Made by a program: the position numbers. Positions 24,001 through 27,000 of a stretch of 32,000 bases of DNA are shown here, piece by piece; the first letter of the stretch is position 1, and each line of letters begins with the position of its first letter. Source of the stretch: Puniceicoccales bacterium (lineage in GTDB: Bacteria; Verrucomicrobiota; Verrucomicrobiia; Opitutales; JAIRLG01); assembly GCA_031288595.1 (NCBI GenBank), contig JAITRB010000013.1:1-32000 (forward strand), written 5' to 3'.

Positions 24001-27000
24001 CTAGGGCCGCCTGCAGCTTCGGATACTGCGAGGTATCGAGGGGATAGAGCCCGCTGAAGACCATCGGGCGAACCTCCCGGTAGCCCTCCAAAGCCTGGGC
24101 CGCCGGTTCGCGCAGAAGGGTCACCGTGTCTCCTATTTTGACATCGGAGACCCTTTTCAGGTTGCTGACGAGATAACCCACCTGTCCGGCCGCAATCCTC
24201 TCCGCTTTCCGCATCTGGGGAGAGAAGAGGCCCACTTCCTTGAGAACACCGTGCTGCTGCGTCCGCATCAGCCATATTTCGTCTCCGGCGCGAAAACTTC
24301 CGGAAAATACCCGCACGTGACAGATCGCGCCCTGGTAGGCGCTGAACACGGAATCGAAAATCAGTCCCTTGGCCGGAGCATCTTCCGCTCCCTTCGGAGC
24401 CGGAATGCGGCTGAGGATGGCTTCAAAAATCTCCGGCACACCCTGGCCGGACTTGGCACTCGCCGGGATCGCCTCTTCCCGCGGAATGGCCAGGATGTCC
24501 TCCAGCTGCTGCAGGACCAGCTCCGGCCGCGCATGGGGCAGATCTATCTTGTTGAGGACGGGGATGATGACCAGACCCTGCCGCATCGCCAGCTGTGCAT
24601 TGGCCACTGTCTGGGCCTCGATGCCCTGGGCCGCATCCACCAGGAGCAGCGCCCCCTCGCAGGCGGCCAAGCTGCGAGAAACCTCGTAGGAAAAGTCCAC
24701 ATGCCCGGGGGTATCGATCAGGTTCAGCAACCATTCAGCCTCCATCCTATCCCGATACCGCATGGTCACCGGATGGCACTTGATCGTGATGCCGCGCTCC
24801 CGCTCCAGGTCCATGGAATCCAGTACCTGCTCCTGCATCTCCCGCTGCTGCAGGGTATGCGTATACTCCAACAGCCGGTCGGACAGCGTCGTCTTCCCAT
24901 GGTCGATGTGGGCGATGATGCAGAAATTGCGGATACGCTCAATGGCTGGCATGAGGGTTCCCTTCTAAAGAACCCCAAAGTTCCGGCAAGACAAGCCTCT
25001 TTATGGCTACCGGATTCCCTGGTGCCCAGAGAGGGGGTCGAACCCTCACTCTCTTGCGAGAATCGGATTTTGAGTCCGACGCGTCTGCCGATTCCGCCAT
25101 CTGGGCACGGGAGCAATGTGCCTCGACCGCAAAACTTCGCAAGCGGAAAAGGAGTGGGGAGAGGAAGGGCGAATTCTGTTCTTTCTTGTTTTGGGGCCGG
25201 CTTTCGATGCCTTCGGCATCGGGCCCGCGCAGCGGGCCGCAGGGGATAAAAATGATGAAAAAATCATTTTTACCCCCTGCAAAGCCGGCCCCAAACCCAC
25301 AAAACACTGTTATCGGAAAGGACATAAGCGGGAGATCTAGCCAAATCCTCAAACCCTGACCTAAAGCCACTAAAAAACCTCCAGATCTCTCTCATCCCAA
25401 TCCAGGTTTTTTTAAAACATACTTGCCTCGAGAGAGGATTTCCGATAGCCCCGAGGGCAAAATCTCCCATGCTGCCCTTTCCAAGCGTCGACGACCGAGC
25501 ACCCCTGTGGCGCCTGCTGATCTGCCTCGGGCTTGGCATCGTTCTATCGGAATGGCTCCCGCGAGGCTCTCCATGGCCTGCACTGGGAATATTTTTCCTC
25601 CTATACCGATCTCTTTCCCTCCGCCGTCAGCTCTGGGATGGTAAAGATATGCCCTCTGGAGATAAGGGCTGGGAAAGGGCGCTGATCAGCCCGAGTTTCT
25701 GTGTCTTGGCCTTCGCCCTCTACGCCCAGTGGCGCAGTCCTCCGGCGCTCGAAGCCGAAGGTTTCAGGGACGGATGGTATACCCTCGATCTCCGCCTGCA
25801 GCGGACCTATGCCCGCACAAGTGCCCGGGCGCACCAGATCTACGGCCAAGGAATCCTCGTCGACGGCCCCGCTCTGGCCACGAGCTTCAGGGGACAACGC
25901 GTCCACTTCACGCTCGACGAGAAATCTCCGCAGAGGCACTACCGTGGTCAGACCCTGCGCATCTGCGCCCATCTCCAGCTCCTGAAGGGGAGTTACGCGC
26001 CCCATTCCTTCGAATCCTATCTGCAACGGGTGCGCATTCCGCTCCACATCGGTCGCGGGAATATTCGATCCGTCGTCCGCGAGGGCCCAGCCTTCTTTCG
26101 CCACTGCCGACAGCTCCAGGAACGTGCCCGGGAGCAAGTCCTGTGCTCCCATGGGGATACCCATCTCCTGCGAGGTATGCTCCTCAACTGCCGGGGCGAC
26201 CTGCCGCGCTCCCAGAAGCAGCTCTTCGTCCGCACCGGTGTCGCGCACCTCCTGGCCATCAGCGGGCTGCACGTCGACATCATCGGATGGACATTGGGAA
26301 TCTTCCTCAAATTCCTGCGACTTTCCAGGCGACAGCGACGACTGCCCTGTATCCTCCTTCTCGGCCTCTACACTTGGGTCATCGGCGCTCCGCCATCGGC
26401 CGTACGGGCCTTTCTCATGCTGAGCTATCTCTGGTCGGCCTGTTTCTTCTCCCGGAAGGCCTCGATGCTCTCCGCCATCAGCTTCGCCGGCATCCTCTCG
26501 CTGCTTGCCTATCCTCAGCAACTCTGGGATTGGGGGATGCAATTCTCCTACAGCGCCGTGCTCTGCATCACCCTTTTGGGAGGCCCTCTGGTGAATCACC
26601 TCTCGCGTCGGCTACGATCCAAGGCTCCCAAGTCCACCTCCTGGAGCCATTGCCTGCGCTCTTTTTTCTCCTACGGCCTGAACTCCTTCTGCATCTCGGT
26701 ACCGATCGCCCTGTTGACCCTACCGCTCAGCATCGAGTATTTCGGCTCCTTCAGCCTCGGCGGTATCCTCATCAATCTCATCGCCATTCCGCTCGCCCTG
26801 GGCCTCATCGTCAGTGGATTCTGTACCCTGGTCATCGGGTACTTTTTCGGCAATTTCGGTCACTGGATCCTGACACAGCTCCTGCTCCCCTACATCCGGG
26901 TTTTCGAAGGGATTCTCCGATTTTGCGATGAGCATCTGGCCTGTTTCTGGACCTGTTCGCATGTCATCCCGGGCATCGGCCCAACGACCCTTCTGGGCGT

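Follow-up and report, generated by a model that had tools for sequence, protein, structure and literature searches.

What are the three intergenic elements of about 100 nucleotides (nt) that a first-pass annotation had picked out in a 32-kb stretch of a Puniceicoccales metagenome-assembled genome (MAG; Verrucomicrobiota; contig JAITRB010000013.1), each described as an outer stem enclosing three hairpins? We call this whole stretch the window; coordinates refer to it unless they carry an L-number, which denotes a locus fetched from a relative or another organism. The three elements, here copies A, B and C (Table 1), belong to a family that is abundant and diverse within one clade. We read them as lineage-specific, non-coding palindromic elements of a REPIN/MITE-like kind (MITE, miniature inverted-repeat transposable element) that are, or recently were, mobile, and in which the conserved unit is a strand-symmetric four-way DNA junction; we put the probability of this reading at about one half.

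The three loci and their architecture were confirmed by folding both strands. For each copy the minimum free energy structure equals the centroid structure and consists of the outer stem around exactly three hairpins. With RNA parameters, the energies on the plus/minus strands are -79.1/-81.9 (A), -80.2/-80.1 (B) and -72.4/-69.0 kcal/mol (C), with z-scores of -7.2 to -12.5; as had been expected, these folds are better than those of controls, none of 200 shuffles being as stable and dinucleotide shuffles lying at -35 to -40 kcal/mol. DNA parameters give identical folds (z = -9.7, -12.6 and -7.5 for A, B and C). When a 110-nt fold was slid over the 32 kb, A, B and C were the three lowest points (-82, -79 and -73 kcal/mol), the fourth reaching -55. 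The description of A and B as having no linker at the junction also held; C has the 2-nt linker CC.

We refer to the internal hairpins as S (short), GC (GC-rich) and L (long, variable). The initial correspondence among them was wrong for B, which runs in the opposite direction to A and C, so that it opens with the long variable arm and its last hairpin is the homologue of the first hairpin of A. The apparent difference between the hairpins of A and B thus arose because the inversion was not recognised. Similarly, the CTTCGG motif taken for a UUCG-type loop is incidental, since the loop is a 3-nt TTC that varies among copies, and in B the motif falls inside the L stem.

How far does this family extend? 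One genome per species was scanned for the outer-arm pattern GGGCYGGCTTT-N55-85-AAAGCCRGCCC. Among the 84 loci found, 39 are true copies with exact arms, all of them in a related MAG, Puniceicoccales Pcl387_bin38 (JAITKE01). A covariance model (R1), built on an alignment of 41 copies (A2), detects 84 copies in 302 kb, namely 78 in JAITKE01, two in the window and four in three other relatives, a density estimate with an upward bias, since copies served as the anchors when the MAG loci were fetched. The further copies that such a model had been proposed to find therefore number at least 78 in JAITKE01. In the window, R1 scores B at 100.4 bits (minus strand), A at 95.4 bits (E = 3e-16) and C at 48.2 bits (E = 2.7e-7), and it has no match in 18 searched loci of other organisms, among which there is no Pseudomonas or Marinobacter locus. 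The model added about 45 more diverged copies in the JAITKE01 loci. Their outer arms differ (GCGCTGTCTTT, CCGCTGTCTTT, GGGCTGCCTTT, CCGCCGCCTTT, TCGCCGTCTTT and others), as do their S and L sequences and sometimes the GC hairpin; all still fold into a stem and three hairpins.

Across the family, single-sequence folds give an outer stem and three hairpins in 84 of 85 copies. The outer stem has 11-17 bp and always ends in CTTT/AAAG, the S hairpin has 6-7 bp, the GC hairpin 6-8 bp (GCCCGC-nnn-GCGGGC) and the subfamily-specific L hairpin 12-26 bp, with median helix lengths of 11, 6.5, 7 and 18 bp. The junction usually holds zero to two unpaired nucleotides (none in 37 copies, at most two in 74), and 3-nt loops close the S hairpin in 83 of 84 copies and the GC hairpin in 80 of 84. 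The module consensus reads CGATNNC-nnn-GNNATCG for S and GGCCCGC-nnn-GCGGGCC for GC, with the ends GGGCYGGCTTT...AAAGCCRGCCC; TCC, GGA, AAA, GAA and TTT replace TTC in the S loop of other copies. The GC hairpin is the most conserved module, and both S and GC are conserved in sequence within subfamilies. Many copies have a long arm with an A-run/T-run core, others a GC-rich one, so that an AT-rich third hairpin, as first proposed, is not a feature of the family. The related statement that hairpin sequences differ while the architecture is kept was right in that architecture is far more conserved than sequence over 84 copies; where it needs amendment is that the differences lie mainly in the long arm. 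By crude calls of open reading frames (ORFs), all copies are extragenic except one in mutL and one nested in another copy, and some form tandem clusters. Two 157-nt variants (L048:1836-1992, L060:3974-4130) have a much longer GC-rich hairpin in place of the middle (GC) hairpin and a large loop on the long arm, and are three-branched all the same.

Compensatory change keeps the pairing. In an alignment of 84 copies (A3) with 39 pairs and 3239 pair cells, 98.4% of the cells are standard pairs versus 73% in shuffles, and double changes occur in 31 of the 39 pairs; these counts are inflated toward structure, since A3 had been fitted to the model. For covariation the score is 0.634, compared with 0.153 in shuffles, none of 500 of which reaches it, and falls to at most 0.149 when partners are slid by one to three columns. 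Independent single-sequence folds agree with this picture. Moreover, the Y/R position of the outer arms, which was left free in the search pattern, pairs in 40 of the 41 aligned exact-arm copies (23 T-A, 17 C-G), the single exception being an alignment shift in L046.

On which nucleic acid does this constraint act? Watson-Crick pairs make up 97.3% of the cells, with 38 cells of G·T versus 29 of A·C. Because an RNA helix tolerates G·U and not A·C, selection on an RNA strand should lead to an excess of G·U, and none is seen: G·T is found equally on the element strand and the opposite one (18 versus 18), and copies in tandem gene contexts have 14 on the sense side and 18 on the antisense side. 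Orientation relative to flanking transcription is mixed (21 co-oriented, 13 anti-oriented), and the 59 copies whose gene context could be classified divide into 34 tandem, 14 convergent and 11 divergent, near the random 2:1:1. Complementary triloops are found either way round with respect to the remainder of the element (TCC 11/GGA 6, TTC 7/GAA 4, TGC 15/GCA 5; AAA and TTT likewise), which is what flipping of a palindrome centre at the DNA level produces. The pairing constraint is thus of the Watson-Crick type, equal on both strands and at the level of DNA, and the structured RNA that had been considered at first does not fit these counts. A possible lead is that single-stranded DNA forms unusually stable G-N-A triloops when the closing pair is C-G.

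The flanks are skewed when read on either strand, the 5' side being G/T-rich (A-poor) and the 3' side A/C-rich, with about 8% T in the first 10 nt. This skew decays over about 60 nt, and the flanks are complementary for only 1-3 extra bp. It could represent a target preference, decayed longer arms, or C>G tracts that resemble Rho loading sites.

Insertion at new sites has taken place. Almost identical copies are found on different contigs, where their flanks are unrelated. The A/B-type subfamily, abundant in JAITKE01 and present in the window, is absent from 43 kb of four relatives (L137-L140), which carry C-type copies only. In the spacer between tRNA-Leu and ComEC, L137 has a C-type copy where the window has A. 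L137 also carries a copy in the gap between ComEC and the AMP-binding gene, which in the window is free of copies; this gap measures about 700 bp in L137 and holds one four-way-junction copy and two copies of another repeat, MITE2 (see below). One copy (L039:1207-1302) is an in-frame insertion in mutL (ORF 577-2622), the frame remaining open over 681 aa. The insert lies between two MutL subdomains, query residues 201-248 (48) standing against 8 residues of a solved MutL structure, and just upstream is an 18-nt partial duplicate of the element's left end (GCCGGCTTTGGCGGCGGA), which is not a target duplication. This insertion is an exception, one of about 85 copies. In a nested arrangement (L024:1599-1801), one copy has its GC hairpin split by a second, inverted copy (1644-1735); the loop reads GGA in the left half of the split hairpin and TCC, the opposite orientation, in the right half. 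One subfamily lies within a larger repeat of about 320 bp with CTAGAGGGTGTCGTCAAA inverted repeats at its bounds. A separate idea, that nearby or target DNA supplies the sequence of the long arm, was rejected, as the 18 nt of the L 5' arm next to the loop have no match outside the elements (at most one mismatch, 283 kb).

Several points weigh against a mobile family, besides the upward biases in copy density and pair counts given above. Target-site duplications and empty sites, proposed from the start as signs of mobility, were looked for and not seen: neither target-site duplications nor direct repeats occur at the boundaries of 80 copies, and no clean empty site appears in the compared loci. 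No transposase, RAYT (the transposase associated with REP sequences), reverse transcriptase or multi-copy ORF was found in the roughly 310 kb sampled, which is incomplete and not decisive. This search comprised Pfam on 19 window ORFs, an all-versus-all BLASTP of 282 ORFs, and tblastn with E. coli RayT, which returned nothing below E = 0.5; a parent insertion sequence with matching terminal repeats was likewise not found in the sampled loci, and both results cover part of the genomes only. Finally, the stems of B are perfectly kept between species, which is unexpected for a purely selfish, decaying copy. A MITE-like or single-stranded-DNA element whose outer stem acts as inverted repeats, one of the options raised at first, is the reading that the data favour.

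If the elements do move, a trans-acting, structure-specific enzyme would recognise and copy them as folded single-stranded or extruded DNA; candidates are an HUH/RAYT-like nuclease or another junction- or hairpin-specific enzyme. The ability to fold on both strands would then keep a copy in the propagating pool, and resident copies would be tolerated in spacers of any gene orientation, with at least one under purifying selection. A more tentative proposal is that the junction itself, which either DNA strand adopts equally, is selected, either as a substrate of a new junction- or hairpin-specific system of single-strand DNA mobilisation (a chromosomal analogue of rolling-hairpin or hairpin-telomere systems, perhaps nicked at CTTT↓S) or as a structural DNA element exapted by the host and maintained at resident loci by purifying selection. 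The invariant CTTT↓S step at the junction (alignment columns 9-11) is a candidate recognition or nicking site, and it matches the WTT↓S preference of RuvC.

The elements share most with the known palindromic repeats of bacteria. REP (repetitive extragenic palindromic) and REPIN sequences are short GC-rich intergenic palindromes present in tens to hundreds of copies, with compensatory changes that keep their hairpins; they occur in both orientations, sometimes in clusters, persist at orthologous loci, and are thought to be read as folded single-stranded DNA (PMC3116915, PMC8049555, PMC3479197). The Puniceicoccales family is similarly high-copy, palindromic, extragenic, partly clustered and found in both orientations, with compensatory change. 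A REP is, however, one hairpin of 20-40 nt, and a REPIN two inverted REPs in one long hairpin, whereas here we find a four-helix junction. REP/REPINs carry a GTAG or CGTC tetranucleotide at one hairpin end (PMC3733652), and the family consensus contains none of GTAG, CTAC, CGTC and GACG. Genomes with REP/REPINs also have a cognate single-copy RAYT, usually flanked by REPs, and none was found in the DNA sampled here. BIMEs resemble the family in their modular palindromic units, of which copy C is a mosaic, and in their clusters, but their modules lie side by side without a common enclosing stem or junction. The initial judgement that the elements are neither REP nor BIME is therefore supported by the lack of a GTAG/CGTC tag and of a single-hairpin fold.

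Like MITEs (Correia/NEMIS, ERIC, RUP, Coxiella QMITE) and Rickettsia palindromic elements (RPE), the elements are non-coding, about 100 nt long, bounded by inverted repeats, dispersed and variable in presence, and as with RPE and QMITE one copy lies in frame inside a protein gene (mutL). A typical MITE has a largely unstructured, AT-rich core, target-site duplications and an insertion-sequence origin, a description that the co-resident MITE2 fits. The Puniceicoccales family is instead rich in GC, helices and 3-nt loops take up every base, and no duplication was seen, so that it shares with MITEs, among their defining traits, only the inverted repeats (outer arms of 11-17 bp) and the size. ERIC and Correia had also been set aside in the first-pass annotation, a judgement that the comparisons support for REP/BIME and attC. 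Integron attC sites, rejected there too, are likewise diverse in sequence and conserved in structure; they measure 57-141 nt and are recognised as folded single-stranded DNA. An attC site is, however, a single imperfect hairpin with extrahelical bases and R''/L''-L'/R' boxes, used on one strand in cassette arrays next to intI, whereas here there is a perfect multi-helix fold without array or R/L boxes, and the neighbours are housekeeping and type III secretion genes.

Another possible likeness in shape is that with the inverted terminal repeats of parvoviruses such as adeno-associated virus (AAV) and with Streptomyces telomere folds, in which an outer stem stands over short GC-rich hairpins with 3-nt loops (AAA/TTT, GNA). 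AAV-type termini would also share the near absence of unpaired junction bases, internal hairpins in 'flip' and 'flop' orientations and a fold of single-stranded DNA. Parvovirus/AAV and Streptomyces termini are the ends of linear replicons served by known nicking or priming proteins, and AAV has two internal hairpins; the elements described here are dispersed repeats inside chromosomes, with three internal hairpins. No homologue of the Puniceicoccales element was found in viral contigs or phage records.

Are resident copies kept in place? The window region 30547-32000 is syntenic with L058 of JAITKE01, which holds the orthologue of B (L058:7-102). The stems of the two copies are identical at 86 of 86 positions, with a 1-bp indel on both arms of L, while agreement is limited to 3 of 10 positions in the loops and to 71.9% in the adjoining non-coding flank. 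At the flank rate, 86 unchanged positions would have a probability of about 5e-13 (0.719^86). Because self-templated palindrome correction would let complementary arms drift, the B pair suggests purifying selection on the resident copy, in which case the host would use the folded DNA or be harmed by its decay. C has a positional counterpart, L138:5766-5868: both are just downstream of yscX in the same orientation, and each of their helices shows compensated changes. Since the modules of C form a mosaic drawn from two subfamilies, gene conversion is possible for this pair. Evidence for conservation in place hence comes from one clean pair (B/L058) and one looser one (C/L138).

These pairs bring in the main rival, that the family is a host cis-acting structural DNA element whose folded or extruded junction serves the cell (as a binding site for junction-binding nucleoid proteins such as HU, a supercoiling sink or a transcription-unit boundary); its spread would lie in the past, and host-level selection would now maintain it. 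We consider this possible though on balance unlikely. The frozen stems of B point to such a constraint, as far as one clean orthologous pair can, and so do the shared position of C and L138:5766 and the strand symmetry of the pairing; there is also a precedent, as REP cruciforms are reportedly bridged by HU and a REP-derived RNA (PMC4550694). Placement is, however, random with respect to gene orientation, and one copy sits inside mutL and one inside another copy. Copy number is very unequal in close relatives, and copies are lacking in the next-nearest ones, as is typical of selfish DNA, and the signs of conservation come from one or two loci. A host-kept element and a mobile one are not mutually exclusive.

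Rather improbable, in our view, is an element acting at RNA 3' ends, as a bidirectional terminator or as an mRNA-stabilising exonuclease barrier of the kind proposed for enterobacterial REP. The fold is very stable on either strand, C begins between convergent genes, the A-run/T-run core of many long arms looks like a bidirectional terminator, and the 3' flanks are rich in C over G and A over T for about 60 nt, resembling a Rho loading (rut) site. Yet 11 of the 59 classifiable copies, A and B among them, lie in divergent 5'-5' spacers, where there is nothing to terminate. Unlike intrinsic terminators, the structure is followed by no U-tract, the 3' flank being poor in T. Canonical terminator and promoter signals around A, B and C are at background level; the terminator scan flags only the GC hairpin of B, with 12 sites in the region versus 8.1 expected, and G·U is not enriched on the sense strand.

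An independently transcribed family of structured small RNAs, suggested by the strong covariation, the compact multi-helix fold and the lack of a known family match, is very improbable. Both strands fold equally, orientation is random, and G·U is on a level with A·C. The loops are the least conserved part, as seen between the B orthologues, whereas functional RNAs usually conserve loops or junction bases. There are some 80 or more copies, including tandem clusters, the insertion in a gene and the nested copy, and no promoter-like site accompanies A, B or C. Least probable of all is a retron-like template for a reverse transcriptase, as only the architecture recalls msr-msd (terminal inverted repeats, short hairpins and one long variable hairpin), while a retron is a single locus beside its reverse transcriptase with an unpaired branching G, and here we find dozens of copies per genome, strand-symmetric palindromes with a fully paired junction and no excess of G·U, and no reverse-transcriptase gene or domain beside the three copies, among the other window genes or in the sampled ORFs.

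How widely is this DNA distributed? The window LepA is 83-84% identical to that of the next relatives, and about 72% identical to those beyond; no copy was found in 50 kb of these next-nearest relatives (LepA 72% identical; CP095464.1, JAIRXM01 and a Logan contig). In the JGI metagenome contigs, a pattern for the S+GC core gave 52 loci with no true member according to the model; the only one with a weak R1 match is L135:7862-7929 (34.9 bits, E = 9e-4, GC 0.75). IMG/VR, PLSDB and phage GenBank records gave no match. The absence of a known Rfam family, already noted in the first-pass annotation, was borne out: at the gathering threshold only tmRNA and tRNA match in the window, and when 25150-25340 was scanned by E-value, nothing scored above the 18-21 bits of miRNA and psaA models, whose thresholds are 50-97. 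We found no description of such elements in the literature, our coverage of which is incomplete.

The outer-arm scan also brought up loci in Pseudomonas sp. SMAG_U15387, Marinobacter and others; their interiors differ on inspection, and they are not members. The Pseudomonas loci belong to a repeat family of about 84 nt that shares the 11-nt outer arms (GGGCCGGCTTT...AAAGCCGGCCC) and has a nested second stem (ATGCCGGCC) and a variable interior. Such repeats occur in SMAG_U15387 (L002, L003, L006, L009, L011, L015, L016, L031, L043, L055, L065, L067, L076) and SMAG_U15396 (L007, L012, L026, L033, L054, L056). This family is unrelated and probably of the REP/REPIN type, and the shared outer arms look coincidental.

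Two further repeat families are present in the relatives. The first, of 75 nt, also forms a four-way junction and was found in a related MAG (L057:292-366, L057:2663-2737, L059:4711-4785, L017:3344-3418), with none in the window. Its outer stem GGGGCCCCGGGAC/GTCCCGGGGCCCC encloses the hairpins GCTCGC-TTC-GCGAGC, AAGCGGC-TTTA-GCCGCTT and AGCCCTC-TTT-GAGGGCT; it occurs in both orientations with T-run/A-run flanks, and its DNA fold has z = -6.5 to -9.5. That a family unrelated in sequence has the same design argues that the architecture, and not the sequence, propagates. These repeats account for weak model hits of about 75 nt that were at first suspected of being tRNAs; ARAGORN finds no tRNA among them. 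The second family, MITE2, is a conventional MITE: its copies measure about 130-175 bp, end in inverted repeats of 18 bp (CTAGAGGGTGTCGTCAAA) and have a core that is rich in purines and weakly structured. Examples are L047:1846-1992, L062:591-733, L058:1915-2090 and L058:3407-3557, and, in L137, 3094-3240, 3426-3570, 5409-5555 and 5947-6091. MITE2 often adjoins or surrounds four-way-junction copies; its terminal repeats have no match in the window (at most 3 mismatches).

Table 1. Positions of copies A, B and C, their parts, and a marginal locus in the window
Feature	Position	Strand	Remarks
Copy A, whole element	25190-25295	+	Order S-GC-L on + strand; fold and model R1; divergent spacer between tRNA-Leu(caa) (25020-25106, -) and ComEC (25469-27199, +)
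A, 5' outer arm TTTGGGGCCGGCTTT	25190-25204	+	Pairs with 25281-25295
A, S hairpin CGATGCC-TTC-GGCATCG	25205-25221	+	7 bp, 3-nt loop
A, GC hairpin GGCCCGC-GCA-GCGGGCC	25222-25238	+	7 bp, 3-nt loop
A, L hairpin	25239-25280	+	18 positions per arm, one A/C mismatch, 6-nt loop
A, 3' outer arm AAAGCCGGCCCCAAA	25281-25295	+	
Copy B, whole element	30552-30647	-	S-GC-L reads on - strand, inverted relative to A; orthologue L058:7-102; divergent spacer between PilT-like ATPase (28773-29948, -) and next gene (30744 onward, +)
B, outer arm GGGGCTGGCTTT	30552-30563	+	Pairs with 30636-30647
B, L hairpin	30564-30601	+	Perfect 38-nt palindrome
B, GC hairpin GGCCCGC-ATC-GCGGGCC	30602-30618	+	
B, S hairpin CGATTTC-TTT-GAAATCG	30619-30635	+	Homologue of first hairpin of A
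B, outer arm AAAGCCAGCCCC	30636-30647	+	
Copy C, whole element	22376-22477	+	Diverged subfamily; order S-GC-L; fold and model R1; convergent spacer, start 34 nt past YscX stop codon
C, outer arm GGCCGCCTTT	22376-22385	+	
C, S hairpin GAGCCC-TTC-GGGCTC	22386-22400	+	
C, GC hairpin GCTCGC-TGC-GCGAGC	22401-22415	+	
C, linker CC	22416-22417	+	
C, L hairpin	22418-22467	+	
C, outer arm AAAGGCGGCC	22468-22477	+	
Marginal locus, possible decayed or short relative	4805-4874	+	Just downstream of tmRNA gene

The marginal locus of Table 1 combines a GC hairpin with a degenerate S hairpin inside the outer stem GCCACCTTTG/CAAAGGTGG, and lacks the long arm. R1 matches 4807-4872 marginally (20.6 bits, E = 0.04), and the DNA-parameter fold has z = -3.3. 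The neighbouring tmRNA gene (4322-4715) has an unusual predicted tag peptide, AESSSCRFERVGDLPVHG, whose call may be wrong. Beyond it, the window encodes an AcrB-type efflux system, a type III secretion cluster, LepA, tRNA-Leu, ComEC, an AMP-binding enzyme and a PilT-like ATPase. In a mechanical calling, the ComEC ORF (25469-27199) shares its last 95 nt (27105-27199) with the AMP-binding ORF (27105-28763), and the true start of the latter is probably later than called. Positions 1-2000 are low in GC (0.40-0.48 versus about 0.57 elsewhere), and the two ORFs there (101-718 and 715-1824) have no Pfam match, nor does a 455-aa ORF at 2420-3787. According to a preprint, bins with the sample code Pcl387, which is part of the name of the element-rich MAG JAITKE01 too, are MAGs from lower-termite guts.

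The palindromic repeats known in bacteria are single hairpins (REP), hairpin pairs (REPIN) and inverted-repeat MITEs, and a four-way-junction unit extends this repertoire. Together, the subfamilies, compensatory evolution, flipping loops and frozen stems imply an enzyme or host protein that reads the geometry of a DNA junction. At a practical level, the elements break assemblies, several lying at contig ends, and could be mis-annotated as small ORFs or RNA genes. The family offers a natural test bed for how palindromes stay perfect in vivo, and for whether such elements are parasitic or put to use by the host; it also bears on which proteins handle junction-forming DNA in the reduced genomes of host-associated Verrucomicrobiota.

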